NCBI GenBank assembly: GCA_041666205.1
Contig: JBAYHI010000005.1
Span: 20,386-84,385, forward strand
DNA length: 64,000 nucleotides
Reading direction: 5' to 3'
Source of the DNA: Patescibacteria group bacterium
GTDB taxonomy: Bacteria; Patescibacteriota; Patescibacteriia; UBA9934
Part shown: piece after piece, positions 1-15,013 of the stretch
Numbering within the stretch: position 1 is the stretch's first letter
How the letters are laid out: every line of letters begins with the position of its first letter
The notes under the pieces: model-generated
The model's input: only the letters and a program-made list of their open reading frames with translations
The model's database searches: none
What the model was told of the DNA's origin: nothing
Translations under genes and position numbers: made by a program

Positions 1-550
1 GTATTTCTTTTTTACTTTTGACGGTAAGAATAGCTTGAGCTAATTCTAAAATTGCGTCACCCTCGTTCTTCCCAACCAGTTCCTTGATCATTCCTTCAAA
101 TTCATAACCAGTTTTTTGGAAATCTCGCATTAAATGAACCCACCTCTCATCTCGAATTTTTGCTGTAAGCGTCTTGATTTGTTCAGCCGGCAATGAATTA
201 ATAATTTGAAGAAAACGATCCACGACTTCCGGATTAAAATTTGCTTGAGATATCGAAACGGAGGCAATAATCTCTGTAACTTTTTGTGGATTCTTTTCTG
301 CCATTCGAGTCAAATACTCGAGCTCAGACATACGATACGAATATCGCATTGGGTCTTCTGCTTTATTTTTTATCTCATCCAAAAATCCTTCTTGCCAAAG
401 CCAGCCAAGCCAAGACTCATCTGCTAGTGAAAAGAAAAATCGTTTAGCGTCTTCATTCACCTGTAGACTTTGTGCGACAAAAACATCAGCGCAGTCAGTA
501 CCGGCTGCGAAAAATTCGCCTATTCTTTTATGTAATTCAAGCTGGCTCAT
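1..550 (-). CDS. hypothetical helical protein; start codon (ATG) at 550, C-terminus cut by the window edge; fourth gene of the MazG/DUF2075/CHAT operon
   Basis: Open frame on minus strand from ATG at 550 to window start (MSQLELHKRIGEFFAAG...). Start lies 1 nt after the CHAT gene stop (552-554), indicating tight coupling. No recognisable motif. Not in supplied ORF track because it has no stop inside the window. Confidence 0.45.
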   Translation of the reverse strand, partial: MSQLELHKRIGEFFAAGTDCADVFVAQSLQVNEDAKRFFFSLADESWLGWLWQEGFLDEIKNKAEDPMRYSYRMSELEYLTRMAEKNPQKVTEIIASVSISQANFNPEVVDRFLQIINSLPAEQIKTLTAKIRDERWVHLMRDFQKTGYEFEGMIKELVGKNEGDAILELAQAILTVKSKKEI

Positions 551-551
551 A

Positions 552-1601
552 TTAAGCATTCATAAATAAAATCGGAACGTAATCTTTATCCGCTTGAGGA
601 TTATCATAATACCTTCTCAGTGATTCCTTATAAACTTCTTCCAACCTTTCGAAGTCTTTTCCGGACACCAAAGATTCATAAAATAATTTAGCAAAGATAC
701 CTGCAGAATCTTCTCCGACTCCATATCTGTAACCAATCGCATATCGCGCAATCCCCTTGCTGACGATTTCAAAAGCCAAACTACTCTTATTCACGGCACC
801 TCCACCAGAATAGCAGGAGGAAACAAAAAACAACAAAAATTTTTTGCCTTGAAGAATGTGGATAATCTCCCAATCTTCCAAAATATCTACTTCATTATAT
901 TGATTAATGTCGGATGCCTCTAAACAAAAACCGCCCCCCTCGTCCCCATGCATCATGATGTGGACGATATTATAATCATCCCAGGCTAAAGCGCCGAATT
1001 TTTCTATCGTTGTGTGTTTCGATATCGATATGTTACTTATATGCAATTGTTTGGGAAGCGCCTCTAAAGCATATTTAACTATATCGATGATCTCAATGAT
1101 TATTTTATTTTTGAGATCTTTCAATTTTTCCGTTCGGCGTTCATTGGAATAGGAGGCTACTAATAATAAACTATTGCTGCTGGGCGGATCTAATCTCTCT
1201 CCTGTAACAACTTTTCTCAAAACAAAAATTCTTTTTGCGGATATCTTTTCCCATGGGAGCTCTAGAAAATCACTAAAACCTGACTCGATTATCAGTTCAC
1301 TGCCATCCCCGAAATCAGAGTCACTCAAAGATATTCGTTCAGCTACAAAACTTACAACGCTTTGAAGATTTGGTCCGAGATTTTTTTCAGTAATATTTTC
1401 ATTGCTCATTCCGTTGCCAGCCCCAGGATTGGTAAGCCGTACCCCCGCAGTTCTCTTTGCCTGAGCACAGCGTCCATCGAATTCAGAAAACAATATGGGA
1501 ACTGGATCGCCTTCGTTGCAACCCACAAATAAGTATTGCCCCACAGGCAATTGTTCCCCGTTGTTTTCTTTCATGTCTTTTAGTTCACAAAAAATCTTCA
1601 T
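552..1601 (-). CDS. CHAT-domain (caspase-like Cys/His) protease
   Basis: C-terminal ~220 aa show caspase/CHAT dyad context: ...VHIMMHGDEGGG (His) and ...FFVSSCYSGGG (Cys in SxCxSG). N-terminal ~130 aa are unrelated/unknown. AT-rich coding sequence. Confidence 0.7.
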   Translation of the reverse strand: MKIFCELKDMKENNGEQLPVGQYLFVGCNEGDPVPILFSEFDGRCAQAKRTAGVRLTNPGAGNGMSNENITEKNLGPNLQSVVSFVAERISLSDSDFGDGSELIIESGFSDFLELPWEKISAKRIFVLRKVVTGERLDPPSSNSLLLVASYSNERRTEKLKDLKNKIIIEIIDIVKYALEALPKQLHISNISISKHTTIEKFGALAWDDYNIVHIMMHGDEGGGFCLEASDINQYNEVDILEDWEIIHILQGKKFLLFFVSSCYSGGGAVNKSSLAFEIVSKGIARYAIGYRYGVGEDSAGIFAKLFYESLVSGKDFERLEEVYKESLRRYYDNPQADKDYVPILFMNA

Positions 1602-1646
1602 GAAATCTGAGTCGATAGCTTATTCACTTAAGTTTTCTTTAATTAA

Positions 1647-3548
1647 TTACGATATATCTTCCTCCCACGTCCCATTCGCATCAATACGACTTCTGAAAAA
1701 CTTTTCTGTTTCTTTATTCACAAAGTACACATAACAACCTTTCATCCCCCGCGTCAATAAGATTCGATAGGTGTTTTTCAACAGCTCGACAAATTGATCT
1801 TTTGATCTCCGAACAACCGTATCAAATGAATGTTCTGGTCGTGCAATCCAATTTTGCTTCTCAAAATCGTAAACCAAATCTTCACCGATAATGACACCAA
1901 CATAATCAAACTCAAATCCCTGAGCCGTATACACGCAACCAATTTGATTTACGCCTTGCGGATCGTGTGCCCATAATGATGCTTTTGGAATTCCGGCCAC
2001 CAATCTTCTTGAATCTGTCTTTGCATTCCACGGACGTTGATAATCTCCGATAACGACATCGTCGACTAACGCGCCCTCATTCGTCGCACTAGACCAAGGC
2101 CAGCAAAACCCTGCTGTCAAACGTGCCGTGTTTCCATGTTCAGCTTTTTCTTTTATGGCTTGTTCCAGAGCCTCCGGCGTGTCGAAAATTTTAAATTCAA
2201 AACCGTCATTTTGGTCCCAAATAGGATTTGCCGTACGTTTGATTCCCAACGTGTTATTGACCCAATTGATAAAGGCGTCCGAGCCATTGCATCGAAATTG
2301 CGCCTCAAGTTCATACTCTAAAACCTCACGGCCTTTTTCTTTTGCGTATTCACGAATGTAGGAAACCGACCCGATCTCATTTGGTCGCACGATTTGATTG
2401 TCGTCGATGAAAAATACGGCAAGTTTCGATGCATCTAATAATTCTTCAATTTGGAGTTTGTTTGAGGTTTTATCTTTCCGTGTAAATCGATTATTGCTCG
2501 TTTTTCGTATTCGATGTGCTTCATCACAAATTAGCACATCAATGTCGCCGGGACCGGCCGAAGCATAACTATTGAAATATTTGAATTGTACCGAGCCACG
2601 CGTTCCAATAATTTTTCTTAGTGTCTCGGTAAATGCTTTTGACCCCGTGGCGTAATGTGCATTTTTCCCCTCAGCTAATAGATCTGCCATTAAATTTAGT
2701 GCAATAACAGATTTCCCCGTGCCAGGACCACCGCGAACAATTAATATTTTACGTCCGTCGCTCGTATCAAGTCCTCGACGTGCTAACGCCATCACCTTAT
2801 CAAAAACGATACGCTGTTCATCGAGCAAAACATATTCTGATTTTCCTTTGATAACTGAAGAGATGTGATCGAGTAATTTCCGACTTGGTTTATATTTCCC
2901 ATTATCAATTTTACTCATGACCGATTCCCCGTTTCCGCGCTCCAAACCCTGCAATAAATATGCACAAAGTTCATCTACTTTTTCTGCTGTAAAAACTGGG
3001 TATTTATCGACGAGGTTGGAGAATTTTGGTGAGAACAACTCATCATTGCTCACCGGATTATAGTTGTGCAAATAACTACACGCTTCCAGACGTACCGGCT
3101 GTGGTCCTTCATAAAAAGTCGTGTGCGTATCTGCAAGATATTCTTTGTACCCGCCAACTTGCGCTGAAGGATGAAGAACCTCGCGCTTCGCACCACCTAC
3201 CCACGTTAAGACTTCATTTTCTCCGTCGGCTTGTTCGGTTTTCTCCCACTGCTTGAGCTCGATGATCATTGCCGTATCTTGAGCGTTTGTATCGACTCCG
3301 CAGATAATGCAATCAAGACGTTTTGACGTTAAAGGCAATTGATATTCCAAAAGGATACCGTGATCAATAAGATCTGCATGCTGAAAAACTTGAGACAATG
3401 CGCGCAACGAATTTCTCCAAGATGTAACCTCAGCTGGCGAAGGATAATAACGAAAATGTGAAAAAAATGCATCGCGAAGAAGATCAGCAATGCGATTTTG
3501 AATATTATCGAGGATAAATTCTTTCGAGGTACCTGAATAGAGTCGCAT
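1647..3548 (-). CDS. DUF2075-type protein: N-terminal PD-(D/E)xK nuclease-like domain fused to SF1 helicase-like P-loop ATPase (Schlafen/Nhi-like architecture)
   Basis: N-terminus has D...ELK nuclease motif (RLDCIICGVD...IIELKQW). Walker A GGPGTGKS, Walker B/DEAH box LICDEAHRI. C-terminal LLTRGMKGCYVYF motif typical of the DUF2075/UvrD_C_2-like tail. 633 aa. Confidence 0.7.
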   Translation of the reverse strand: MRLYSGTSKEFILDNIQNRIADLLRDAFFSHFRYYPSPAEVTSWRNSLRALSQVFQHADLIDHGILLEYQLPLTSKRLDCIICGVDTNAQDTAMIIELKQWEKTEQADGENEVLTWVGGAKREVLHPSAQVGGYKEYLADTHTTFYEGPQPVRLEACSYLHNYNPVSNDELFSPKFSNLVDKYPVFTAEKVDELCAYLLQGLERGNGESVMSKIDNGKYKPSRKLLDHISSVIKGKSEYVLLDEQRIVFDKVMALARRGLDTSDGRKILIVRGGPGTGKSVIALNLMADLLAEGKNAHYATGSKAFTETLRKIIGTRGSVQFKYFNSYASAGPGDIDVLICDEAHRIRKTSNNRFTRKDKTSNKLQIEELLDASKLAVFFIDDNQIVRPNEIGSVSYIREYAKEKGREVLEYELEAQFRCNGSDAFINWVNNTLGIKRTANPIWDQNDGFEFKIFDTPEALEQAIKEKAEHGNTARLTAGFCWPWSSATNEGALVDDVVIGDYQRPWNAKTDSRRLVAGIPKASLWAHDPQGVNQIGCVYTAQGFEFDYVGVIIGEDLVYDFEKQNWIARPEHSFDTVVRRSKDQFVELLKNTYRILLTRGMKGCYVYFVNKETEKFFRSRIDANGTWEEDIS

Positions 3549-3550
3549 AA

Positions 3551-3898
3551 CTAGAGTTTATTGTATTTCGTGTGTTTCCCTTTTGCTTTTTCGATCGGGT
3601 ATTTTTCTTCGTTTTTTTTCAATTTTTTCTCTACCGCTTTCAGAAGATCAATTTTCAAATCATGGCTCATTAATAAAACCCAATACAAAACATCCGCGAG
3701 CTCATCTGCGATATGTTCTTTATCGCTTTTCACATAATCCTCAATTTCTTTTGGATTTTTCCATTGGAAATGTTCCATCACTTCTCCCGCCTCCAAAACC
3801 AAAGAAATCGACAAATCTTTTGGGTTATGAAATTGCCTCCAGTCTCTTGCATCTCGAAATGCAATGATCTTTTTTGTGATCTTTTTTATGTCATCCAT
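3551..3898 (-). CDS. MazG-like nucleotide pyrophosphohydrolase (small all-alpha NTP-PPase)
   Basis: 115 aa; EAGEVMEHFQW (E-x-x-E metal site) and ELADVLYWVLLMSHDL motifs typical of MazG/HisE-superfamily NTP pyrophosphatases. Stop is 2 nt from the DUF2075 start. Confidence 0.7.
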   Translation of the reverse strand: MDDIKKITKKIIAFRDARDWRQFHNPKDLSISLVLEAGEVMEHFQWKNPKEIEDYVKSDKEHIADELADVLYWVLLMSHDLKIDLLKAVEKKLKKNEEKYPIEKAKGKHTKYNKL

Positions 3899-3992
3899 AC
3901 CGTCCCATTCTCCCCCCTTTTCCCTCTTTCTTCAATCCCTCCCCAAAATCAAAAATCCCCCGCCGGGGCGAGGGGAAAAAAACCAGAGGAAT

Positions 3993-4186: not shown

Positions 4187-4753
4187 TTATTCCACAAACA
4201 ATTCATCTTCTTCCCATTTTCGTGGGTTCTCCATAATATAGGTGCGGATATTGCTGAGGGATTTCTCATCACGAACAATGTGTTCATAATAATTCCGTTG
4301 CCAAACCGCGCCACCGGTATTCCCTCGAATAACATTCGCGCGTTTTGTGACCGCGGATTTGAATCCGGCAACAAACGATCCAATCGATTGCGATTTGGGA
4401 CCAGATCGATGTCCTGTAGGGGCGACCGGCCGGTCGCCCCTACGAAAACAAATATCGTCCGTACGAAAAACATCATTTCCACGGTTGATAACCGTAATCA
4501 CATGGATATGATTTGGCATAATCACCAAAGAATCCAATTCGATTTCGGATCGAATTTCGAGGGTCTTCAATAATTCATCATGAACAATATTCCCAAATTG
4601 ATTTAGACGAATAATTCCATGTTCAATTGCACCAAACAAACATTCACGATCCTTTGTGCAAATCGTGAGAAAATATGCGCCATCCTCAGAATAATCGTAT
4701 CCTTGCAGACGAATGGAACGACGGTGCAATCGTGGAAATTTATTAATCGGCAT
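4187..4753 (-). CDS. IS200/IS605-like Y1 (HUH) transposase, REP-associated tyrosine transposase (RAYT)-like
   Basis: HUH motif in VIMPNHIHVITV; C-terminal AVWQRNYYEHIVRDEKSLSNIRTYIMENPRKW with catalytic-Tyr context typical of this family; 188 aa. A REP-like GTAG palindrome is embedded in-frame (see repeat 4416-4443). Confidence 0.7.
   Translation of the reverse strand: MPINKFPRLHRRSIRLQGYDYSEDGAYFLTICTKDRECLFGAIEHGIIRLNQFGNIVHDELLKTLEIRSEIELDSLVIMPNHIHVITVINRGNDVFRTDDICFRRGDRPVAPTGHRSGPKSQSIGSFVAGFKSAVTKRANVIRGNTGGAVWQRNYYEHIVRDEKSLSNIRTYIMENPRKWEEDELFVE
4416..4443. repeat. REP-like palindrome gtaggggcgaccggccggtcgcccctac (GTAG-ended) lying inside the RAYT coding sequence
   Basis: Perfect 28-bp inverted repeat; same GTAGGGGC...GCCCCTAC design as hairpins at 5649, 5699, 5983 and 53537. 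Confidence 0.6.
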
Positions 4754-4772
4754 TTGGCAAAGGATCTATTCC

Positions 4773-5126
4773 TTACTCGTAAATCGGCGGGGACCAAGCC
4801 AACCAGATTATAAGATCTGTAATCAATAGCAATCCAACCAACGCCAGATCCCAAAATCCCACCCATTTTTTCTCTGCAATCTCTGGAAAGAATTTTCCAA
4901 AATAGATGTAGTACAAAATCCGTCGAATGAGTTGCGCGCCAAGAAGGACGCCAACGATTCTTGGAATAGCCGTGAGTGGATAATATCCCCAAAAAATAAA
5001 TCCAACGTCACGCCACGTGAATAAAAGAATAAAAACCGTGGGAACCAAAATGCACACAAAGTAAAGCACGCGCAAAAGGCGATACCATACGATTTCTTTT
5101 GCACGTAAAAGTGTTTTTGTTTGCAT
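4773..5126 (-). CDS. hypothetical small membrane protein (3 predicted TM segments)
   Basis: Hydrophobic stretches ILVPTVFILLF / VGVLLGAQLI / LALVGLLLITDLIIWLAW; no identifiable motif; chosen over overlapping alternative frames. Confidence 0.4.
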   Translation of the reverse strand: MQTKTLLRAKEIVWYRLLRVLYFVCILVPTVFILLFTWRDVGFIFWGYYPLTAIPRIVGVLLGAQLIRRILYYIYFGKFFPEIAEKKWVGFWDLALVGLLLITDLIIWLAWSPPIYE

Positions 5127-5142
5127 ACTCCTCCATGAAAAA

Positions 5143-5589
5143 TTATTTCTTCAGCAATTCCTCAATCATCTTTTTCACGCGTCCCCCATCGACCTGCCCG
5201 CGTAGCTGTTCCATTGATGCTTTCATGGCTTTGCCCATATCAGCCAAATCGCTCACACCAAGTTCGGCAAGAAGTGCTTCAATTTTTGTTTTTAATTCTT
5301 CATCACTCATTTCCGGTGGCAAGTAGGCCTTAAGAATCGCAATTTCTTTTTGCGTTTGCGCAATCAAATCTTCACGCGCAGCTTTTGTGAAATCCCCGAG
5401 TGCATCTTCGAGTTTTTTCAAATCGCTCTTAATGACCGTCATTGCATCGGCGTCTTCGAGTTCTTTTTTGACCTCAATGGCTTTATTTTTGAGAGACGAG
5501 AACGTAACACGCAAGATATTTAAGGTCTCCATGTCGTGGTTACGCATGGCGTTTTTGATGTCTTCTTGGATTTGTTGATAGAGATTCAT
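5143..5589 (-). CDS. GatB/YqeY domain protein
   Basis: MNLYQQIQEDIKNAMRNHDMETLNILRVTFSSLKNKAIE...EMSDEELKTKIEALLAELGV matches the YqeY/GatB C-terminal domain. Start placed at MNLYQQ. Confidence 0.7.
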   Translation of the reverse strand: MNLYQQIQEDIKNAMRNHDMETLNILRVTFSSLKNKAIEVKKELEDADAMTVIKSDLKKLEDALGDFTKAAREDLIAQTQKEIAILKAYLPPEMSDEELKTKIEALLAELGVSDLADMGKAMKASMEQLRGQVDGGRVKKMIEELLKK

Positions 5590-5648
5590 ATGAAGACAGA
5601 TTAGCATGGATTTTGGGATAAATCCATGGATTCTGTCTTATAGAATTT

Positions 5649-5668
5649 ACAGGGGCCTGTCAGCCCCT
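5649..5668. repeat. REP-like hairpin acaggggcctgtcagcccct
   Basis: Inverted repeat aggggc/gcccct; member of the GGGGC...GCCCC hairpin family. Confidence 0.5.
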
Positions 5669-5698
5669 TTTCTTGTTATCTCCACTTTCTTTGGATTC

Positions 5699-5717
5699 GT
5701 AGGGGCATCCTGCCCCT
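5699..5717. repeat. REP-like hairpin GTAGGGGCATCCTGCCCCT (5' GTAG)
   Basis: Inverted repeat with GTAG tetranucleotide as in canonical REP/RAYT substrates. Confidence 0.5.
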
Positions 5718-5727
5718 TGAACCCTGG

Positions 5728-5973
5728 CCCCTCTTTTCTTTGCTGGACCCAAAGAAAAGAGGGGGGAAAAGAAAGGGTCTGTTTTCTTGTAGCCCATCCC
5801 AGCCTTCGCGCTTGGCTGGCCCGGAAAAACGTATGAAGAACCAAACCACCCAGGGCAGGAACGTTTTTCCGGTCGGGCAGTGTTCTGATTGCACCGCCGC
5901 CTCGAGGTTGGTAAAGAGGAATCCGGCAAGTTTCTTTCTCTCCACTTTCTTTGCCGGAACAAAGAAAGTGGAG
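5728..5973. repeat. composite repeat element copy 1: hairpin cccctcttttctttg...caaagaaaagagggg, 87-bp core (5792-5878) identical to 53622-53708, shared aaagaggaatccggc box, terminal hairpin ctccactttctttgccggaacaaagaaagtggag
   Basis: Direct comparison with 53562-53975: core 87/87 identical; flanking hairpins conserved in design; copy 2 carries an extra ~170-bp insert. Confidence 0.65.
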
Positions 5974-5982
5974 AAAATAGGT

Positions 5983-6002
5983 TAGGGGCTGGAAGCCCCT
6001 AC
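5983..6002. repeat. REP-like hairpin taggggctggaagcccctac (GTAG on minus strand)
   Basis: Inverted repeat aggggc/gcccct ending in ...ctac. Confidence 0.5.
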
Positions 6003-6030
6003 AAAAAAGAACAGTCTTTCGACTGTTCTT
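6003..6030 (-). terminator. intrinsic terminator downstream of rpsU (hairpin aagaacagtc-gaaag-actgttctt + T-run on minus strand)
   Basis: Perfect 9-bp stem followed by tttttgt on the minus strand. Confidence 0.5.
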
Positions 6031-6038
6031 TTCTTGTT

Positions 6039-6290
6039 TTAGTTCTGTTGTTTCTTGCGGAAATCTTCTTCTTTAAGCTTTCCGGTACGGATCAAGTATT
6101 CACGCTTCTCGCCCATTTCCAATCGACGCAATGCGTTTTTGCGACGCTTATTGCGATTTGGGGTGCGGGTGAAGAATCGTCCTGCGCGAACATCGAGCGT
6201 TTTACCGCTCTGTTGCACGCGACGGGTAAAGCGACGGAACATCGCTTCAAAACTCTCGCCCTTTTTTCGTTTGATTTCAATGTCTGACAT
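6039..6290 (-). CDS. rpsU: 30S ribosomal protein bS21
   Basis: MSDIEIKRKKGESFEAMFRRFTRRVQQSG...NKRRKNALRRL; typical S21 length and basic C-terminus. Confidence 0.85.
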   Translation of the reverse strand: MSDIEIKRKKGESFEAMFRRFTRRVQQSGKTLDVRAGRFFTRTPNRNKRRKNALRRLEMGEKREYLIRTGKLKEEDFRKKQQN

Positions 6291-6335
6291 GTTGTTTTCC
6301 TACTTTTCTAGTGGCACGAGTGTATCAAAATCCCT

Positions 6336-7676
6336 TTATGCTGTCAACGCCTTCTCGTCCTTCATGCGGCGGCCAACGAGCTCCACCACACGATCGGAGT
6401 CCACAATCTCTTGTGCACCCGATTCCATATCACGAATAATAATAGTGCCGTCGAGCACTTCTTTTTGCCCCAAAATAAGGGCAATCTTTGCATTGTGCTT
6501 ATTGGCAAGATCAAGCTGGGCTTTGAGAGAACCTTTGCCAAACGCTTCGGCAACTGGCACACCCCCCTGGCGGAAACGCTCAAAAATGAGCATGCCTTTG
6601 CGACGTGCAGCTTCACCGAGCTGGCAGAAGAATACTTCTACCTTGCGATTATGTGGCACAGGAGCATTTGCTTCTTTCATGGCCGCAATCACGCGTTCGA
6701 TTCCAACTGCTGCACCCATCGCACCCGTTCCTTCGCGTCCACCCATTTGTGGAATCAAATCATCGTAGCGCCCGCCACCTGCAAGTGAACTTTGTGCGCG
6801 CTCTGGATTATCTGTGACCTGAACGATTTCAAAAACGGTTTTTCCGTAGTAATCAAGACCTCGCACCATGAACGGATCGAGCTCATAGCGCACATCCACC
6901 TCATCAAGATATTCAATCACCTTCATGAAATGCTGTTTTGAATCATCGTCGAGCCAATCCACAATTTGTGGCGCGTTTTTCTTGAGTTCTTCCATGCCCT
7001 CTTCTTTTGAATCCAATAGTCGGAGTGGATTTTTCGCCAAACGCTTCTTATCGGTTTCAGATAATTGACGACGATGTGCTTTAAAATAATTCACAAGCTC
7101 CATGATGTATTCTCGTCGACTTGCTGGTGTGCCAATGGAATTAAGTTTCACCACCACTTCAATACCGAGCTCTTTCATGAGCTGAGCGCACATAAGGATG
7201 ACTTGCGCGTCGATAATTGGTTCCTGAGACCCAAGCACTTCAACACCCCACTGCCAGAACTGACGATATCGCCCAGCTTGTGGACGATCATAGCGAAACA
7301 TCGGCTCGGCATACCAAAGCTTTACGGGCTGTGGCAAATTGAGCATGCCATGCTCGGCATAGGCGCGCGCAACTTGCGCAGTAGCTTCTGGACGGAGGGA
7401 AACGCGATCACCGCTTTGATCAACGAAGGTAAACATTTCTTTTTCCACAATGTCGGTTCCTTTCCCAACCGCACGCTCAAAGAGCGATGTTTTTTCCAAG
7501 AGTGGCAATCGAATGCGACCAAAACTATAATCATCGGAAATTTTTCGAGCCGTATCCATCACCTTGTCCCAATACGCTTGCTCTTCTGGCAAAACATCAC
7601 GGAATCCTCGCAACGTATGAGGTTGGTTGGCCGCTCCTTTTGCCTTTCCCTCCGCTTCTGCTGGTGTTGCAATCAT
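6336..7676 (-). CDS. hisS: histidine--tRNA ligase
   Basis: Class II aaRS motifs; HisRS signatures ...LRGFRDVLPEEQ..., RLPLLE, FERAVG, RPEATAQVARAY, and C-terminal anticodon-binding domain; 446 aa. Confidence 0.9.
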   Translation of the reverse strand: MIATPAEAEGKAKGAANQPHTLRGFRDVLPEEQAYWDKVMDTARKISDDYSFGRIRLPLLEKTSLFERAVGKGTDIVEKEMFTFVDQSGDRVSLRPEATAQVARAYAEHGMLNLPQPVKLWYAEPMFRYDRPQAGRYRQFWQWGVEVLGSQEPIIDAQVILMCAQLMKELGIEVVVKLNSIGTPASRREYIMELVNYFKAHRRQLSETDKKRLAKNPLRLLDSKEEGMEELKKNAPQIVDWLDDDSKQHFMKVIEYLDEVDVRYELDPFMVRGLDYYGKTVFEIVQVTDNPERAQSSLAGGGRYDDLIPQMGGREGTGAMGAAVGIERVIAAMKEANAPVPHNRKVEVFFCQLGEAARRKGMLIFERFRQGGVPVAEAFGKGSLKAQLDLANKHNAKIALILGQKEVLDGTIIIRDMESGAQEIVDSDRVVELVGRRMKDEKALTA

Positions 7677-7692
7677 AGATCGTTATTTGAAA

Positions 7693-8322
7693 TTATTGAT
7701 TTGAATACTCCGGAGACTGAATCGCTCCCATACGGTTGAACGGAAGTCCACGCACCCATGCACGACCCACAATCACCTTACTCGTAATAGGACCAAAGGA
7801 TCGAGAGTCCAAACTTTCATCGCGATTATCGCCCAGCACATAATATTCATCTTCCCCTAATACGACGCTTTCACGTCCATGGGTGTATTCGCTGATATAT
7901 TCTTCGGTGAGCGTAAAACCGTTTGGATGTTCCGCATTCTTGATGGTAATGGTGCCATCGGCAATCTCAACCGTCTCTCCAGGAAGGCCAATCACACGCT
8001 TGATATAAAACTGCGACGGACTGGTTGGCGGAGCAAAGACGACCACCTCCCCGCGATCAATGGCGCGCAAGCGATACGAGAGTTCGTCGATGATGAGATA
8101 CTCGTCGTTGTAAAAATTCGGCTCCATGGATGCGCCCAAGACCACAAATGGCTTTACCACAAAGTAACGAATTGGAATGATGATGGCCGCGGCAATCACA
8201 AGGATTTGCAAGACCTCAACCCCAAAGAGCACAATTGAGCCAAGCGTGGCTCCAAATACACGAAAGATCATGCGATCTTCCCCTTGTGGAGCATCACTTG
8301 TTTCTTTTTTAAAGAATGACAT
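7693..8322 (-). CDS. lepB: signal peptidase I
   Basis: S26 boxes GASMEPNF, YIKRVIGLPGETVEI, VLGDNRDESLDSRSFGPI. Start placed at MSFFKKE (8322) because the longer ORF would overlap the tRNA-Val gene. Confidence 0.8.
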   Translation of the reverse strand: MSFFKKETSDAPQGEDRMIFRVFGATLGSIVLFGVEVLQILVIAAAIIIPIRYFVVKPFVVLGASMEPNFYNDEYLIIDELSYRLRAIDRGEVVVFAPPTSPSQFYIKRVIGLPGETVEIADGTITIKNAEHPNGFTLTEEYISEYTHGRESVVLGEDEYYVLGDNRDESLDSRSFGPITSKVIVGRAWVRGLPFNRMGAIQSPEYSNQ

Positions 8323-8411
8323 GTGAGTTTGTTTAAAGTGCGAGCATAATACCATAAAAAAATCGCCTGTGCAATAGCAAAAAATGGCCGAAGTTAGAGA
8401 AATCCACTCCC

Positions 8412-8440
8412 TTGCCATCCGTCCATTGGTTTGATAGAGT
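8412..8440 (+). promoter_or_regulatory. sigma70-like promoter for tRNA-Val: TTGCCA-N17-TAGAGT
   Basis: -35 8412-8417, 17-nt spacer, -10 8435-8440, ~14 nt before tRNA 5' end. Confidence 0.4.
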
Positions 8441-8454
8441 AGGGATTGCAATTT

Positions 8455-8531
8455 GGACGTGTAGCTCAGCTGGTTAGAGCGCTGTCCTCACACGACAGAG
8501 GTCAGAGGTCCGAGTCCTCTCACGTCCACCA
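8455..8531 (+). tRNA. tRNA-Val (anticodon CAC), CCA encoded
   Basis: ggacgtg acceptor / D-arm gctcagctggttagagc / anticodon stem-loop ctgtc-ctCACac-gacag / T-arm ggtccgagtcc / cacgtcc-a-cca. Confidence 0.85.
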
Positions 8532-8683
8532 CCCTTCGCTCCTTCGGAGCTACGGGTGGCAGGCCATCCTTGTTCAACGAACGACGGATGACAGGCCATC
8601 CTGCCACACTCGGAATCGGCGAAGGGTGCCCTTCCGAAGCTCTGTTCATACAGAGCGAAGGAGGGCGCGAACTCGACGCAACT

Positions 8684-8929
8684 ATGTTTTTTGTGTACAT
8701 CATCCAAAGTATCAATTTTTCTGATAAACGATACACGGGTTTTACTGAATGTATCGAATCAAGGATTGATGAACATAATCGTGGCAAATCGCCACACACA
8801 AAAAAATTCAAACCATGGAAACTAATCTACTATTCAGCGTTTGCAGAAAAAAAGAAAGCATTAGACTTCGAAAAATATTTAAAGTCTGCATCAGGATCTG
8901 CATTCAGAAATAAAAGACTGCTCTCATAA
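8684..8929 (+). CDS. small GIY-YIG nuclease superfamily protein (YhbQ/UPF0213-like)
   Basis: MFFVYIIQS...KRYTGFTE fits the GIY...YIG-type motif pair, followed by R..EH and KPWKLIYYSAFAEKKKALDFEKYLKS. The supplied longer ORF (8570) includes a structured, probably non-coding leader, so start set at ATG 8684. Confidence 0.6.
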   Translation: MFFVYIIQSINFSDKRYTGFTECIESRIDEHNRGKSPHTKKFKPWKLIYYSAFAEKKKALDFEKYLKSASGSAFRNKRLLS

Positions 8930-8960
8930 TCCTCCCTGTTTTTAAAATTTATTTCCGCAT

Positions 8961-10484
8961 ATGGAAAAAATAACGATCGACCTGCATTCCAAATTTTTCC
9001 AACTTTTTTCCTTGTGCGGATTATCTCTCGCCCTTGGATTCCTTTTTGACTACCTCATCTACGATCATGCATTTGGCATTAATGTGCCAATTTTTATTTT
9101 TATTGCAATCACATTCGGGATCCTGCTCGCGCTCAGTTATCGTGTAGCGATTCCAAAACTTGCATACCTGTTTTTTGCGATCGGCCTAGGATTTGCGTTT
9201 CTCCTGTTTTTCCGAGCCAATGCACTTCTCTCATTTTGCAATTTCTGCGCCATGGGATTTTTCCTATTGCTTGGTGTTATTCAACTCACGGAAAAATTCA
9301 TTCATAAATTCCTTGCATTTGATTATTGGAAAACGCTCGCCCTCCCCCTGTTCTTTGTGCCTCCATTTTTAAAAACACTCCAAGATCTCATCACAATTCG
9401 ACATTCCGATACAAAACGCGATACAGCCATCCAAATCATTCGCGGAACAATTGTCGCCCTTGTAATCGTTGCAGTCCTTCTGGCGCTCTTTGCATCAGCG
9501 GATTTGGTGGTGCAGGACTTTTTCACACGCCTATTTTCAAACGAATTAGATGCAGAGCAAATCGCGGAATTTCTGGTGCGCACCTTCTTCGTCACCTTTA
9601 TTGCTGGAGCATTTCTTGGCCTCTATGCGTACGCCTTCCGTCATCCACGCGTGCATGCACCCACGAGTGACGCCACACCTGTGAAGTTCATTAAATCCAT
9701 TGAACTTGGGATTATTCTTATTGCCACGAACCTCATCTTCATTACGTTCCTCACCATTCAAGCCACAAACTTATTTGGCGGACACAATGCGCTCGATCGA
9801 CTAGGAATCACGTATGCAGAATATGCGCAACGCGGATTCTTTGAACTGATCGTGGCCGCACTCTTGGTGGCGCTCGTCTTGTGGATTGCCGATAAATATT
9901 CTGCGAAAAATACCGTGAACGAAAAAACGTCATTTCTCTTTTTGAGCAGCCTACTCCTCGTGCAAACAATTGTGCTCATGGCCTCGGCGTTCTATCGACT
10001 CGCCCTGTACGAAGGCGCCTACGGCTACACCACGCTCCGACTCTTCAGTCACGCGTTTATTATTTGGATTGCGCTTGCGCTCGTGTATTTCCTCGTGAAA
10101 ATTTGGTTCGCAAAAAAAGAAGAGCATTTCGCGCTTGCCACATTTGGAACCGGCGTCGTGCTTTTGCTTGCGCTCAACGCGCTCAATCCTGATGCCTTTA
10201 TGGCAACGCAGCATTTGCAACGCGCCGCTGGCACCGAAACATTTGATGCACCATTTTTATCACAACTCTCTGCCGATGCTGTTCCGGTGCTTTACGAGGC
10301 GATGCGGGCAAATACCGACGCGCGATTACCCGAGGTACTAGCCGATTGGAAAGGAGAGCGCTTTGATTATTCTGGAGAAAAAGGACCAGCGACGCTTCGC
10401 AGTCAGTACGTTGGTTGGCAGGCGTATCATTTTGCACGAACCCATGCGCTCGACGTGCTTGCGGACGTGAACGTCCAAAGATAA
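8961..10484 (+). CDS. polytopic membrane protein, DUF4173-like, function unknown
   Basis: 507 aa with ~12 hydrophobic segments; no catalytic motif recognised. Confidence 0.55.
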   Translation: MEKITIDLHSKFFQLFSLCGLSLALGFLFDYLIYDHAFGINVPIFIFIAITFGILLALSYRVAIPKLAYLFFAIGLGFAFLLFFRANALLSFCNFCAMGFFLLLGVIQLTEKFIHKFLAFDYWKTLALPLFFVPPFLKTLQDLITIRHSDTKRDTAIQIIRGTIVALVIVAVLLALFASADLVVQDFFTRLFSNELDAEQIAEFLVRTFFVTFIAGAFLGLYAYAFRHPRVHAPTSDATPVKFIKSIELGIILIATNLIFITFLTIQATNLFGGHNALDRLGITYAEYAQRGFFELIVAALLVALVLWIADKYSAKNTVNEKTSFLFLSSLLLVQTIVLMASAFYRLALYEGAYGYTTLRLFSHAFIIWIALALVYFLVKIWFAKKEEHFALATFGTGVVLLLALNALNPDAFMATQHLQRAAGTETFDAPFLSQLSADAVPVLYEAMRANTDARLPEVLADWKGERFDYSGEKGPATLRSQYVGWQAYHFARTHALDVLADVNVQR

Positions 10485-10487
10485 TTC

Positions 10488-11978
10488 GTGTATAATAACG
10501 TTGGTATGAAAGAGGAAGTCTCGGTTGATTTTTTGAAGAAAAAATATCAACTGGCCCCGGATCGTCAAAAAGAACAGAAGCGCAAAAAAACCTTCAAATG
10601 GATTGCGGGATTTTTCGTATTTGCGGCGCTTGCGGGGATTGGCGCCTCGTATAGTATTTCTGCAACTAGTAATACAACAAACGATCTTTCCGGACTCTCG
10701 ATTTTTTCAACGGTTCGCGGGCTCATGACCGCGCAAGATAAAGCGCTCTCCGGGGAAACAAGCGATCGCATTAATGTGCTCCTCATGGGCATTGGCGGCG
10801 CAGGGCACGACGGGCCAGAGCTCACCGACACGCTGATCTTTGCCAGCTTCCAACCCTCAACAGGTGAAATTGGCATGCTGTCGATTCCGCGCGATTTAGT
10901 GGTTTCGATTCCGGAGTACGGCTATCGCAAAATCAATGCAGCCAATGCATACGGCGAACTCAATGAGGCCGGCAGTGGTCCACAAGTGGCATCCGATATT
11001 GTGAGCGACATCCTTGGGCAAGAAATCAATTATTACGTGAAAGTAGATTTTGATGCATTTGCAGAACTCATCGATGCCGTTGGCGGCGTTGACGTCTACG
11101 TGGAACGCAGTTTCACTGACTCGACCTACCCCACCGAAGATGATTTGGTTCAAACCATTTCTTTCTCGCAAGGATGGGCCCATATGGACGGCGCCACGGC
11201 ATTGCAATTTGCGCGTTCGCGCCACGGCAATAATGGCGAAGGTACGGATTTCGCGCGCGCGGAGCGTCAGCAAAAAATCATTGTAGCCATGGAAAAACAA
11301 ATCCTCTCCCCTTCCATTCTCTTGAATCCTGGCAAACTTTCAAAGCTCGTAAATCTTTTTCAAGCAAACGTCACCACCAATTTGACCGTATGGGAAATCA
11401 TGCGCCTGTCGGGATATGCGAGCAATATTCAAATGGATAAGATTCGCATGACCGTTCTCGACGACAGTGCAGAGAGTCCACTGTATTCCTCCACCATCAA
11501 CGGGTCGTATGTGCTTTTGCCAAAACAAGACGATTGGGGCGAGGTGCAGGCCATTGCGCAAAATATTTTCGACCCATCACGCATTGCAGCCGAAGCAGAA
11601 ACAGCAACCACCATGGACCCCGTGAGTATCGAAATCCAAAACGGCACGGCGCTTTCCGGACTTGCATTCGAAACGTCCCAGCGATTGGCTGGCACTGGGT
11701 TTGATGTGGTAAAAATTGGCAATGCTGCATCGCGGGATTATTCCAAAACGATTATTTACGATCTGACGCAAGGCACCCATTCCGCCGCGCTTGCGGAATT
11801 GCAACAATTTTTCGGAGCCGATGTAAAGATGTCGGCATCGGGTTGGATTTTTTCTAGTGAAGTTGTGCCACGAGAGCTTACCGTGGCAACGCCGGGAGAA
11901 TCCATTTCCACAAGCGATACGCAAATTGATTTCTTAGTGATTCTTGGCGCGAATGCGGAAAATTTAGTCTTAAAATAA
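10488..11978 (+). CDS. LytR-CpsA-Psr (LCP) family cell-envelope phosphotransferase with C-terminal LytR_C domain
   Basis: N-terminal TM anchor; LCP core INVLLMGIGGAGHDGPELTDTLIFASF...LSIPRDL...YYVKVDFDAFAELIDAVGGVDVYV. Confidence 0.8.
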   Translation: MYNNVGMKEEVSVDFLKKKYQLAPDRQKEQKRKKTFKWIAGFFVFAALAGIGASYSISATSNTTNDLSGLSIFSTVRGLMTAQDKALSGETSDRINVLLMGIGGAGHDGPELTDTLIFASFQPSTGEIGMLSIPRDLVVSIPEYGYRKINAANAYGELNEAGSGPQVASDIVSDILGQEINYYVKVDFDAFAELIDAVGGVDVYVERSFTDSTYPTEDDLVQTISFSQGWAHMDGATALQFARSRHGNNGEGTDFARAERQQKIIVAMEKQILSPSILLNPGKLSKLVNLFQANVTTNLTVWEIMRLSGYASNIQMDKIRMTVLDDSAESPLYSSTINGSYVLLPKQDDWGEVQAIAQNIFDPSRIAAEAETATTMDPVSIEIQNGTALSGLAFETSQRLAGTGFDVVKIGNAASRDYSKTIIYDLTQGTHSAALAELQQFFGADVKMSASGWIFSSEVVPRELTVATPGESISTSDTQIDFLVILGANAENLVLK

Positions 11979-11979
11979 T

Positions 11980-13356
11980 ATGGCACGAACCTCCTCTCTT
12001 CCTGTTGTCGCGATTGTTGGCCGAACCAATGTGGGGAAATCCACTATTTTTAATCGACTCTTGCAGGAACAAAAATCTCTCGTCTCGAGTATGCCGGGCA
12101 CAACCCGCGATCGCTTTGAAGGCAATGTGCTGTGGCGCGGTCATTTTGTGCGGATCGTTGATACCGGTGGATTTGGCACCAAGCCCGTCGATGATTTAGA
12201 AAAAGCCATGTTTGAACAAGCGCGCCAAGCCATTCGCGAAGCCGATGCGCTCGTTTTTGTGACCGATGCGCAAGTGGGCCCGCAAGATGAAGATAAACTC
12301 ATTGCCCAAGAACTCATTCAAACAAAAAAGCCAATCATCTTTATTGCCAATAAAGCCGATAATGCCACCATTCGTGGCACGCTCGAAGACGCAGCGTGGC
12401 ACCGATTCCCGTTTGGTCTCCCGCTTGGAATTTGCGCCAATCAAAACAGTGGCTTGGGCGATTTGCTCGACCGCGTGTACGAAGAGCTTGAGCGTATTGG
12501 GAAGCAACCAGCCGATGTGCAAGACGTCATCACCACACGTGTTGCCGTCATTGGTCGACCAAATGTAGGAAAATCCACGCTCCTCAATTCCCTCTTGGGA
12601 GAAAAGCGATTTATCACGTCCGCCACCGCCCATACCACACGAGAACCAAACGACACCGATATTACGGTCAATGAAAAAGTGTATACGCTTATTGATACCG
12701 CTGGCATTCGCCGAAGCAATCGCGTTGCGCAGAAAAAAGTGGCGCTTGAAAACTTGGGCGTTGAAAAAACAATCGACGCCATGAAGCGCGCGCATGTTGT
12801 GCTATTTGTGATCGATATTTCCGAAGAAGTGAATGCGCAAGATAAGCACTTGGCCGGAGAACTCACCAAGGCCGGCGTAAGCGTCATCATGATCGCAAAT
12901 AAATGGGATCTCATTCCCGACAAAGATCCAGAAACAATCAATGCGTTTGAAACCTACCTGCGTGCGCACTTCCCTATGCTTTCTTATGCGCCGATTGTCT
13001 TTACCTCTGCCATGACCGGGCAACGCGTGCCCCATCTGTTTGAGGTGATTGATTTGGTCTTCAAGAGTCGATTCACGCAACTTTCAAAAGCGGAGTGTAA
13101 AGAATTTATCGGTCGCGCGATTTTGCGTCATCAACCAAGTCGTGGACGTGGAGTGCAGCATCCAAAAATTACCTCCTTTGAAGAAACAAGCCTGAATCCT
13201 CCAACCTTCACATTGCATATTCGCCAGTCTCGCGAAGATGCACTCAACCCATCCTACCTTCATTTCCTTAGCAATCTTTTGCGCGATCAATATGAGTTTC
13301 AAGGGACTCCAATCCGTATTGAAGTGGCTGCCCGCAAGAAACACCACACCACCTAA
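11980..13356 (+). CDS. der: ribosome-biogenesis GTPase Der (EngA), tandem GTPase domains
   Basis: Two G-domains: VAIVGRTNVGKSTIFNRL...DTGG and VAVIGRPNVGKSTLLNSL...DTAG; C-terminal KH-like domain. Confidence 0.9.
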   Translation: MARTSSLPVVAIVGRTNVGKSTIFNRLLQEQKSLVSSMPGTTRDRFEGNVLWRGHFVRIVDTGGFGTKPVDDLEKAMFEQARQAIREADALVFVTDAQVGPQDEDKLIAQELIQTKKPIIFIANKADNATIRGTLEDAAWHRFPFGLPLGICANQNSGLGDLLDRVYEELERIGKQPADVQDVITTRVAVIGRPNVGKSTLLNSLLGEKRFITSATAHTTREPNDTDITVNEKVYTLIDTAGIRRSNRVAQKKVALENLGVEKTIDAMKRAHVVLFVIDISEEVNAQDKHLAGELTKAGVSVIMIANKWDLIPDKDPETINAFETYLRAHFPMLSYAPIVFTSAMTGQRVPHLFEVIDLVFKSRFTQLSKAECKEFIGRAILRHQPSRGRGVQHPKITSFEETSLNPPTFTLHIRQSREDALNPSYLHFLSNLLRDQYEFQGTPIRIEVAARKKHHTT

Positions 13357-13924
13357 TTCGATTCTCATTGTCGGATTGGGAAACCCAGGGGGAGAATATA
13401 AAACCACTCGCCATAATATTGGATTTGAGCTCATCGACGCGATGTCGGAAAACCTCTCGCTCACATGGAAACAGCAAGCACGCTTTTCTAGCCTGATTGC
13501 CGAAGGATCCATCGACGGAAAAAAAATCATTCTCCTCAAGCCCCAGACGTTCATGAATGAGTCCGGCATTGCCGTGGCGCGCGTGGCGCATCAATTCAAA
13601 ATTCCTTCCACGCAGATCTGGGTGATTTCCGACGACGCCACCCTGCCATTTGGCATGATGCGCATTCGCACCGGAGGGTCTGCCGGCGGACACAATGGCC
13701 TCAAATCCATCATTGCACACCTCAAGACCGAAACATTCGGTCGTGTGCGTATGGGTGTGGGAACTCCCCCCGCACAGATGCCTTTAGATCGCTTTGTGCT
13801 TTCACGCCTCACCGCAAACGAACAACACGAACTCGCAGAAATGAAAAACGCCGTGGTGCAAGAACTCACGGAGTCCATTGCGCGCGGAGCGCTTTTAGTT
13901 GACACACGCAGTCTTCTTGGCTAA
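13292..13924 (+). CDS. pth: peptidyl-tRNA hydrolase (start uncertain; overlaps der 3' end)
   Basis: ILIVGLGNPGGEYKTTRHNIGF...HNGLKSI...RVRMGVG. The only in-frame ATGs (13238, 13292) are upstream of the der stop (13356), implying a 65-119 nt overlap or a non-canonical start near 13355. Confidence 0.75.
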   Translation: MSFKGLQSVLKWLPARNTTPPNSILIVGLGNPGGEYKTTRHNIGFELIDAMSENLSLTWKQQARFSSLIAEGSIDGKKIILLKPQTFMNESGIAVARVAHQFKIPSTQIWVISDDATLPFGMMRIRTGGSAGGHNGLKSIIAHLKTETFGRVRMGVGTPPAQMPLDRFVLSRLTANEQHELAEMKNAVVQELTESIARGALLVDTRSLLG

Positions 13925-13933
13925 AACAACGCC

Positions 13934-15013
13934 ATGCGAAACGATCTTCCCTATTGGTTGGCCTTGCGCGCCTATGAGAAATTCGGACCCCGCTCATTTG
14001 AGCGGCTTCTTTTGAAATTTGAAACCATGGAAGAAGCATTCCACGCCTCGCGCGAAGCGCTTCTTGACGCAGATCTCACCACCCTCGCCGTGGATAGTTT
14101 TTTACACTTGCGCGAGGACATCCATCCAGAGGCACTCGTGGCGGATTTGGAGCGTCACCACCTAACAGCGATTACAAAATGCGATGAGGAATATCCCGCA
14201 CTTCTGGGAACAATCTACGATCCGCCACCCGTTTTGTTTATTGCAGGCACGCTTCCTCCCGCAGAAATTGCTCATGTTGCCATTGTGGGGTCGCGCAAAG
14301 CCAGTCCATATGGCCTGCGTATTGCCGCGCAAATGAGCGAAGAGCTTGCAGAAGCCGGGTGCGTGATTGTGAGCGGGCTTGCCTACGGAATAGATGAAGC
14401 GGCCCATAGCGCCACCCTCAAAACAAAAGGCTTAACCGTAGCCGTGCTTGCGTGCGGACACAATCAACTCATTGGCCGCGCGCGCTATTTAGCACAAAAA
14501 ATTGTCGAGGCAGGAGGCGCTGTGATTTCAGAATTCCCCTTGCATACGCCAGCACATTCCTTTCACTTCCCCATTCGCAATCGCATCATTTCAGGCATGT
14601 CGCAAGGCACGCTCATTGTGGAGGCAACCAACGATTCTGGTTCGCTCATTACCGCGCGCAGTGCACTCGAACAAGGTCGCGATGTTTTTGCGATCCCCGG
14701 CAATATCGATTCCCCAACATCTGTTGGCACCAATGGACTCCTCAAGGTTGGCGCCTACCCGACCACCAGCAGCCAAGACATTCTGGACGTACTTCGCATT
14801 GAAAAACGCCCGGACGCCACGCGCGCTCCAATCACTCCCGATTCCGCCGATGAAGCAGCTATTCTTCCCTTCCTCTCCCAAACTCCAGTTCACATCGATG
14901 ACCTCGTGCATGCAAGTGCGCTTGGCATTGCAACGGTTGCGAGTACGCTCACGCTTATGGAAATCAAAGGCCGAGTGCGTCATGTGGGTGGGATGTTTTA
15001 TATTTTAGTATAA
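13934..15013 (+). CDS. dprA: DNA-processing protein DprA (Smf)
   Basis: Rossmann-like DprA core GSRKASPYGLRIAAQMSEELAEAGCVIVSGLAYGIDEAAH...IPGNIDSPTSVGTNGLLK. Confidence 0.85.
   Translation: MRNDLPYWLALRAYEKFGPRSFERLLLKFETMEEAFHASREALLDADLTTLAVDSFLHLREDIHPEALVADLERHHLTAITKCDEEYPALLGTIYDPPPVLFIAGTLPPAEIAHVAIVGSRKASPYGLRIAAQMSEELAEAGCVIVSGLAYGIDEAAHSATLKTKGLTVAVLACGHNQLIGRARYLAQKIVEAGGAVISEFPLHTPAHSFHFPIRNRIISGMSQGTLIVEATNDSGSLITARSALEQGRDVFAIPGNIDSPTSVGTNGLLKVGAYPTTSSQDILDVLRIEKRPDATRAPITPDSADEAAILPFLSQTPVHIDDLVHASALGIATVASTLTLMEIKGRVRHVGGMFYILV

Follow-up and report, generated by a model that had tools for sequence, protein, structure and literature searches.

A foreign low-GC islet in a Patescibacteria contig that probably holds two adjacent defence cassettes, a MazG-like/DUF2075 pair and a CHAT protease with a predicted Dsr1/Avs7-type sensor

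The stretch of Patescibacteria DNA considered here (the window, 64,000 nucleotides (nt) of contig JBAYHI010000005.1) opens with a block of four closely packed minus-strand genes, g1 to g4, that a preliminary description made from the sequence alone had taken for one new four-gene conflict system. We compared the gene neighbourhoods of 74 loci carrying homologues of g4 and 80 loci carrying homologues of the DUF2075 gene g2, and on this basis the single four-gene system was rejected as the main reading: the block is probably a defence islet in which two separate two-gene cassettes, each conserved independently of the other, lie side by side. Cassette A (g1 and g2) corresponds to a Nhi-like nuclease-helicase with a conserved MazG partner, and cassette B (g3 and g4) to a sensor of the Dsr1/Avs7 type whose effector, a CHAT protease, is split off as a gene of its own; both are uncharacterised. 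The genes, with lengths in amino acids (aa), are as follows.

3551-3898, minus strand: g1, 115 aa, MazG-like pyrophosphohydrolase, first gene of cassette A
1647-3548, minus strand: g2, 633 aa, Nhi-like nuclease-helicase (DUF2075; nuclease putative), second gene of cassette A
552-1601, minus strand: g3, 349 aa, CHAT protease, predicted effector gene of cassette B
1-550, minus strand: g4, N-terminal 183 codons in the window, alpha-solenoid and predicted sensor of cassette B

The evidence for independent conservation of cassette A comes from 80 metagenome loci with a g2 homologue at 56-66% identity, 77 of which have enough upstream sequence to be read. A MazG-like gene adjoins the g2 homologue at 47 of these 77 loci, immediately upstream on the same strand in 41 of them (with a gap of -1 to 76 nt), divergently in five and downstream in one, and a homologue of g3 or g4 is present at none of the 80. 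The pair can also be recognised in annotated plasmids, as a 'nucleotide pyrophosphohydrolase' beside a 'DUF2075 protein' in Halalkalicoccus jeotgali, and in Priestia aryabhattai amid a restriction endonuclease, DUF3578, a type I restriction-modification (R-M) system and an ABC-3C protein. A literature search returned no paper joining MazG with DUF2075, and nothing relevant for MazG with Nhi.

Cassette B has a different micro-synteny. At 90% identity the g4 family falls into at least 245 clusters, and a threshold of E <= 1e-3 gives 2422 representatives; the 74 genome loci analysed are mostly from Patescibacteria, with a few from Caldilineaceae and Nitrospirales. At these loci the commonest upstream partner is a helical protein of 170-280 aa whose gene overlaps the g4 homologue or lies within a few bases of it; about one third of the family carries this domain instead as a fused N-terminal extension of 160-210 aa, which gives forms of 1150-1190 aa, and the separate and fused versions make up a single 43-member cluster, the largest among the 74 loci. 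A g3-type CHAT protease stands in for this partner in no more than four or five lineages: the window's own, L003/L004, L027, L046 and that of the P0002 contig. Among the 5.8 billion 90%-identity clusters searched, only five others belong to the g3 family, and every g3 homologue with visible context has a g4 homologue directly downstream. Further partner variants are an FRG-domain fusion, a tandem partner duplication and transmembrane partners. At L054 (8939-10060) an FRG domain (PF08867, 2e-16) is fused ahead of the helical partner domain, and in P0304, a protein of 1313 aa, the helical domain is duplicated in tandem before the solenoid. MazG-like and DUF2075 genes stand beside a g4 homologue only in the lineage of the window and at one other locus, L017 (2 of about 74 g4 lineages). 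The simplest reading of these neighbourhoods is that the two cassettes are separate and come together now and then in defence islands.

The genes found around the g4 family are those of R-M systems and mobile elements. DNA methylases, including ParB-methylase fusions, are neighbours in 22 cases among the 74 loci, large serine recombinases in 15 and Eco57I-type IIG enzymes in 15, followed by type III Res proteins, PLD-SNF2 helicases and UvrD helicases (seven each) and terminase-like genes. The contig of the g3 homologue P0002 also encodes a BglII endonuclease and a methylase, and the final part of a type III Res-like protein, recognised by reading the sequence, lies directly upstream at L003. 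Because methylase fusions, recombinases and terminase-like genes recur nearby, many copies of the g4 family may reside on integrated mobile elements or prophage remnants. At L008, L023, L027, L028, L059, L072, L078 and others, ParB-N-terminal/methylase fusions, large serine recombinases and small and large terminase-like genes are found no more than 7 kb from the predicted sensor genes. An anti-phage or conflict role for the four genes, which the preliminary description had anticipated, is very probable.

The physical layout of the block is well defined. The four open reading frames (ORFs) are exactly where that description had placed them, with intergenic gaps of 2 nt between g1 and g2, 45 nt between g2 and g3, and 1 nt between g3 and g4, the last becoming an 8-nt overlap when the upstream ATG on the full contig is used. 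A search for proteins identical to g3 led to a source contig containing the complete g4 (locus L001: ENA ERZ27249449 k141_1431597, a 288-kb metagenome contig), and identical genes are present on two shorter contigs besides. It had been supposed that g4 was only partly visible and that the operon might extend beyond the window; g4 does continue past it, to 980 aa (L001:11043-13985; 976 aa from the second ATG), but it is the final gene of the block and is followed by a gene of 93 aa on the opposite strand. The AT-rich composition ascribed to these genes was borne out when windows were compared: the GC content of 1-3898 is 0.4005, against 0.4826 +/- 0.0133 (minimum 0.459) in the other 3.9-kb windows (z = -6.2), and the GC content at third codon positions is 0.35-0.40 for all four genes vs 0.45 for HisRS. 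On L001 the low-GC block extends over approximately 6000-14000 and has an abrupt edge at the g4 stop codon, where GC rises from 0.39 to 0.55. Given the compositional deviation and the sharp edge, we conclude that the block is a foreign, probably horizontally acquired islet. Two further features lie upstream of g1, the second being a transposase of the RAYT (REP-associated tyrosine transposase) kind, where REP denotes repetitive extragenic palindromic elements.

3957-3974, minus strand: probable terminator, a GC-rich hairpin and T-run in the interval between the RAYT and g1
4187-4753, minus strand: RAYT-like Y1 (IS200-like) transposase, flanking context rather than a component, in the same low-GC island

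The hairpin has 7 pairs, 6 of them G-C, and the tail ATTTTTGATT; it is a probable terminator that would insulate the block from upstream transcription. A promoter scan found sigma-70-like sites to be fewer than in shuffled sequence and is thus uninformative on internal promoters. Both cassettes are probably transcribed together.

The assignment of g1 as MazG-like, made in the preliminary description, held up in profile searches, with a match to PF12643 (MazG-like) at E = 5.1e-18 (65.5 bits, cut-off 27) and to the PHROG 3301 pyrophosphatase at 1e-17. Its nearest solved chains are an archaeal pyrophosphatase (4qgp, 2e-18) and mouse and human dCTP pyrophosphatase 1 (DCTPP1, or RS21-C6; 2a3q and 6sqw, 9e-18), and its acidic metal-binding motifs, EAGEVMEH and DELADV (ExxE ... 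ExxD), align with the same motifs in 4qgp and RS21-C6. From these relationships g1 is predicted to be an all-alpha nucleoside-triphosphate pyrophosphohydrolase of the DCTPP1/RS21-C6 type. The preference of DCTPP1 is for 5-modified dCTP.

In g2 the helicase is clearly delineated. PF09848, the DUF2075/Schlafen-group-3 superfamily 1 (SF1) helicase family, matches residues 266-609 at E = 2.3e-91, and the residues invariant in 17 homologues are D79, E97-L-K99, the Walker A motif GGPGTGKS at 273-280 and D342-E-A-H345. Close homologues of g2 often carry an additional domain: in about half of the closest ones (proteins of about 800 aa; P0127 and others; loci L080, L081, L084 and L096) the C terminus is a LexA-type S24 self-cleaving peptidase, a domain typical of SOS-responsive proteins, and a MazG-like gene lies upstream in nine of the nine S24-bearing homologues among the 80 loci. 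The presence of the S24 domain suggests proteolytic or SOS-type control of this DUF2075 helicase family. The PADLOC models matched by g2 are PDC-S41 (5e-18), AbiO (3e-16) and Nhi (6.4e-15), the Nhi match pairing residues 236-472 with profile positions 178-377 of 470, which is the helicase part only; a PDB sequence search with g2 and with the g2 profile gave no useful relative. Nhi and Nhi-like have been shown by experiment to be anti-phage and have a nuclease followed by DUF2075 (10.1101/776245; 10.1101/2022.05.11.491447), and a truncated fragment is noted there to be the active nuclease (10.1101/776245). Judged by its sequence g2 has the same architecture as Nhi, yet it is not a Nhi orthologue, since the matches to the Nhi, PDC-S41 and AbiO models are all partial. 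The invariant D79...E97-x-K99 motif, and a layout identical to that of Nhi and Nhi-like, led us to regard the N-terminal region of about 250 aa as a putative PD-(D/E)xK-like nuclease.

At several DUF2075 loci where the MazG-like gene is missing (L105, L118, L123, L150 and L130-L133) a family of approximately 260-350 aa and a 176-aa GNAT-like protein recur upstream. By eye, members of the former look like HNH endonucleases with an N-terminal domain that reads modified bases, that is, like modification-dependent enzymes. The HNH proteins at these MazG-less loci give hints of a link between cassette A and phages with modified cytosine.

Part of this evidence could be accommodated by a cellular role for cassette A in DNA damage or nucleotide house-cleaning, in which g1 would sanitise the dNTP pool and g2 would process damaged or stalled DNA. 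The relatives closest to g1, DCTPP1/RS21-C6, are a house-cleaning family, many g2 homologues are fused to the LexA-type peptidase, and a MutT gene lies near the Priestia pair. The g2 family, with 7597 matches at E <= 1e-10, is also unusually conserved in both bacteria and archaea, identity remaining at about 65% in Omnitrophota, Bacteroidota and archaea. Horizontal transfer has nevertheless given the pair a patchy distribution, with occurrences on plasmids and in this low-GC island, and in Priestia it is surrounded by restriction genes; moreover, the architecture of g2 is that of the proven anti-phage proteins Nhi and Nhi-like, and the PADLOC models that it matches are PDC-S41, AbiO and Nhi. 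We therefore regard a house-cleaning function as quite improbable and treat cassette A as a candidate defence pair.

The identification of g3 as a CHAT protease, also proposed in the preliminary description, required evidence from several directions. Its own match to CHAT PF12770 (E = 0.0016, 18.3 bits) falls under the cut-off of 24, but homologues pass: the L027 protein scores 33.2 bits (4.7e-8), and a PF12770 match is precomputed for both P0002 and P0005. An AlphaFold2 model (predicted local distance difference test (pLDDT) 78, predicted template-modelling score (pTM) 0.82), which has a small N-terminal beta/alpha domain, was compared with the PDB using Foldseek, and the best matches are SAVED-CHAT (8tl0, 8.3e-10), Csx29 (8eey, 2.7e-6) and separase (9e-6), followed by DdvA, gingipain and caspases. 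Residues H214, M217, H218, G219, S261, C263, S265, G266 and G267 and an FLELPWE motif are invariant in seven sequences, and in the model H218-G219 follow strand 212-216 and C263 follows strand 255-261, these being consecutive strands, as in caspases. Fold, dyad and threshold-passing homologues together confirm, as far as sequence and model can, that g3 is a caspase-like Cys/His protease of the CHAT group. PADLOC has no match for g3. CRISPR-linked CHAT systems, CBASS and Thoeris were considered as identities for the locus and rejected on the absence of their partner genes; no Cas, gRAMP, SAVED, cyclase or TIR partner gene lies within 10 kb on L001.

A further revision concerns g4, which had been recorded as an unknown helical protein in a block with no link to known systems. 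The full-length protein matches the PADLOC Dsr1 model at E = 1.5e-20, with residues 466-811 aligned to profile positions 743-1073 of 1227, in the part that is not SIR2, and its AlphaFold2 model (pLDDT 89.8, pTM 0.61) is an all-alpha HEAT/TPR-like solenoid. Pfam gave no family and no P-loop domain for g4, a PDB sequence search with the g4 profile gave nothing useful, and no SIR2 domain was found in g4, g3 or any listed member of the g4 family, whose members lack Pfam domains and go by the name 'hypothetical protein' alone. A bilobed, sharply bent TPR-repeat sensor that detects the phage major capsid protein is reported to be common to Dsr1 and the STAND protein Avs7 and to be combined with NADase, nuclease, kinase and HEPN-like effectors (PMC12803255, a 2026 preprint); the main text of that preprint makes no mention of CHAT effectors, split two-gene forms or Patescibacteria. 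The profile match indicates that g4 is homologous to the Dsr1/Avs7 sensor region, and we accordingly designate it a predicted sensor of a phage protein. In distant relatives of g4 on haloarchaeal plasmids a STAND-type AAA_16 ATPase precedes a g4-like C terminus. One of these, L162 (Halapricum desulfuricans plasmid pHSR-Bgl01, CDS locus 4702-8793), encodes a protein of 1363 aa in which AAA_16 is followed by a g4-like solenoid with 21% identity over 84% of g4, and genes for a Doc toxin and for HNH and HEPN proteins lie nearby. Another distant relative, L161 (Legionella pneumophila plasmid, CDS locus 5137-7506), is a hypothetical protein of 789 aa with insertion sequence (IS) elements on either side.

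We considered whether cassette B might instead be a cellular proteolytic regulator, either a separase-like combination of solenoid and caspase or a scaffold for the giant surface and pilin proteins encoded nearby. Separase, which consists of a helical solenoid and a CHAT-like protease, is among the fold matches of g3, the structural matches of g4 are generic HEAT repeats, and large T4SS-pilin, Big_5 and VWA proteins are encoded downstream on the contig. These downstream genes, however, differ in GC and are parted from g4 by the opposite-strand gene, and a conserved set of neighbours is not seen at other loci, where R-M genes, recombinases and terminase-like genes surround the family. In addition, the partner of g4 is swapped among unrelated domains (helical, CHAT, FRG fusions and transmembrane), and the match to the Dsr1 model is significant. 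A role in cellular regulation is thus highly improbable, and an interchangeable effector attached to a predicted phage sensor is the reading of cassette B that we retain.

Several observations nonetheless weigh against the interpretation of the block as two distinct defence cassettes. The nuclease of g2, which the preliminary description had given as PD-(D/E)xK, is a matter of the motif: a Pfam search with residues 1-255, the N-terminal domain by itself, returned no match, so that of the proposed nuclease-helicase the DUF2075 helicase with its GPGTGKS and DEAH motifs stands and the nuclease is putative. The Dsr1 model is matched by only 8 of 29 g4-family members (best 7.8e-26), and the fold search of g4 against the PDB returned generic HEAT-repeat matches only. 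The helical partner may be HEPN-like, a label drawn from conserved Arg-Glu and His residues and from the similarity of 5 of its 42 members to PF18165 ('predicted pPIWI-associating nuclease'), which stays below threshold. When CPR (candidate phyla radiation) R-M proteins were used as tblastn queries, only 5 of the 80 g2 loci were matched, which is uninformative about the defence context of cassette A, the queries being lineage-specific and the contigs short. The separateness of the cassettes is countered by two further points. No terminator-like site comparable to 3957-3974 was detected in the 45-nt gap between g2 and g3, and L017 (9240-14961; Patescibacteria JBBTSM010000001.1) provides a second juxtaposition of the MazG/DUF2075 pair with a g4 homologue: a helical partner of 255 aa with a hydrophobic N terminus, a g4 homologue of 979 aa, a MazG-like protein of 118 aa that is 67% identical to g1, and a DUF2075 protein of 518 aa. 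Tight packing and L017 could be taken to imply functional coupling of the two cassettes, which we judge unlikely.

The same points bear on the possibility that all four genes form one integrated system, for example one in which a sensor-activated CHAT protease cleaves and activates g2 while the MazG-like enzyme acts on nucleotides. The genes are on the same strand with gaps of 2, 45 and approximately 0 nt, nothing resembling a terminator separates g2 from g3, all four lie in one low-GC island, the juxtaposition at L017 is independent, and proteolytic gating is conceivable given the S24 self-cleaving domain on close g2 homologues and the activity of a truncated Nhi fragment. At L017, however, the order of the pairs is reversed, the partner is not a protease, and the DUF2075 protein has a GIY-YIG-like N terminus (a sub-threshold Pfam match) and not a PD-(D/E)xK-like one, so that the nuclease domain is different. 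Each pair keeps its own conserved micro-synteny, with g3 or g4 at 0 of 80 DUF2075 loci and MazG/DUF2075 in 2 of about 74 g4 lineages, and the known clustering of defence genes alone would account for an occasional adjacency. We consider one integrated system unlikely. A specific form of cooperation, in which the sensor-activated CHAT protease would cleave g2 and free its nuclease while the DCTPP1-like enzyme destroys modified dCTP, is in our view very unlikely; it would be an in-trans counterpart of the S24 self-cleaving domain fused to many close g2 homologues and, if true, would constitute a protease-gated DNA-degrading system against modified-cytosine phages.

With two separate cassettes as the preferred reading, we infer a course of events for each, from trigger to biochemical steps and protease substrate. 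In cassette A, g2 would attack phage DNA or replication intermediates, by analogy with Nhi, and g1 would hydrolyse dCTP or modified dCTP needed by the phage. In cassette B, g4 would bind a conserved phage protein, for which the major capsid protein is the obvious candidate by analogy with Dsr1 and Avs7, and this binding would activate the effector docked at the g4 N terminus. The helical, possibly HEPN-like domain present in most relatives would here have been replaced by the CHAT protease g3, activated perhaps by induced proximity, as caspases and SAVED-CHAT filaments are. Once active, g3 would cut proteins of the host or the phage and so bring the infection to an end; no protease substrate gene is evident at the locus.

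The flanking DNA has features of its own. The RAYT transposase reported next to the block is present at 4187-4753: Pfam Y1_Tnp PF01797 is matched with 27.1 bits (cut-off 23), NCBIfam REP_Tyr_transpos is matched at E = 3.6e-18 but with 65.9 bits falls under its cut-off of 80, and the GC content of the ORF is 0.425. Palindromes, likewise mentioned in the preliminary description, are found both inside and beyond this ORF. Within it, at 4416-4443, the in-frame sequence GTAGGGGCGACCGG/CCGGTCGCCCCTAC forms a perfect 28-nt palindrome between the two stretches that match the Y1 profile, and weaker half-copies with 3 mismatches are present at 5699-5714 and 5987-6002 (4 matches vs 0.3 expected); from its sequence, the 28-nt palindrome looks like a REP-type element inserted in its own RAYT. 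The non-coding stretch at 5660-5990, between the YqeY-like and S21 genes, contains several inverted repeats, among them 5728-5764 (15-nt arms, 100% complementary) and 5936-5977 (18-nt arms, 94%), with outer arms at 5665-5693 and 5960-5988, and Rfam has no family match for it. On the other side, past the end of the islet, L001:14926-21050 encodes giant secreted or surface proteins of 573 aa and more than 3100 aa with T4SS_pilin, Big_5, TIG and VWA domains, at a GC content of about 0.51; such genes are typical of Patescibacteria.

If the proposal for cassette B is borne out, a caspase-like protease joins the effectors wired to the Dsr1/Avs7 capsid-sensor design, in a split two-gene form, which is relevant to how bacterial pattern-recognition receptors exchange effectors. 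The g4 family would then be a major, uncatalogued defence family in the Patescibacteria, where immunity is poorly charted. The pair of MazG-like and DUF2075 genes is very widespread, in thousands of bacterial and archaeal genomes, and is a candidate for defence by nucleotide hydrolysis combined with a nuclease-helicase, the DUF2075 helicase being related to the helicase domain of human Schlafens.

Among known systems, cassette A is closest to Nhi of S. epidermidis (SERP2475) and Nhi-like (Millman et al., 2022), proteins of similar size in which, as in g2, a nuclease-like N terminus precedes a DUF2075 SF1 helicase. It is the helicase part of g2 that matches the Nhi and AbiO models of PADLOC, and the resemblance to Nhi in the nuclease domain is therefore putative. 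In contrast to Nhi, which is a single gene, g2-type genes usually occur with a MazG-like gene (47 of 77 loci) and often encode a C-terminal S24 peptidase. For g1 the comparison is with DCTPP1/RS21-C6 and with MazG-like enzymes of phages or bacteria, of which it is a sequence relative (E of about 1e-17) with the acidic metal-binding motifs. Known nucleotide-depletion defences use a dCTP deaminase or a dGTPase; removal of dNTPs by g1 would similarly starve phage replication, but g1 is minimal, at 115 aa, and differs from both the enzymes and these defences in having no sensor of its own.

The fold of g3, with its His/Cys dyad, is closest to CHAT proteases of CRISPR systems, Csx29 of Craspase (type III-E) and SAVED-CHAT (type III-B), and in principle cassette B would resemble these and the caspase-like protease of type IV Thoeris as a protease effector switched on by a separate sensing module. 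Unlike the CRISPR-linked CHAT proteins, g3 lacks a fused TPR region and would be activated by a protein-binding solenoid whose gene lies downstream, and unlike Craspase and SAVED-CHAT the locus has no candidate substrate gene corresponding to Csx30 or PCaspase. The sensor, in turn, is best compared with DSR1 and Avs7. Like these, g4 is an all-helical repeat protein, matching the C-terminal, non-SIR2 part of Dsr1; its family combines one predicted sensor with interchangeable N-terminal effectors, including the helical, possibly HEPN-like one; and, as in Avs7, a STAND-type ATPase is carried by a haloarchaeal relative. In contrast to DSR1, g4 has no SIR2 domain, and in contrast to Avs7 it has no STAND NTPase, AAA_16 being confined to the distant haloarchaeal relatives. 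It differs from both in being unfused to its effector, for which there is a gene of its own upstream, as there is in roughly two thirds of the g4 family, and in that the family is centred on the Patescibacteria.

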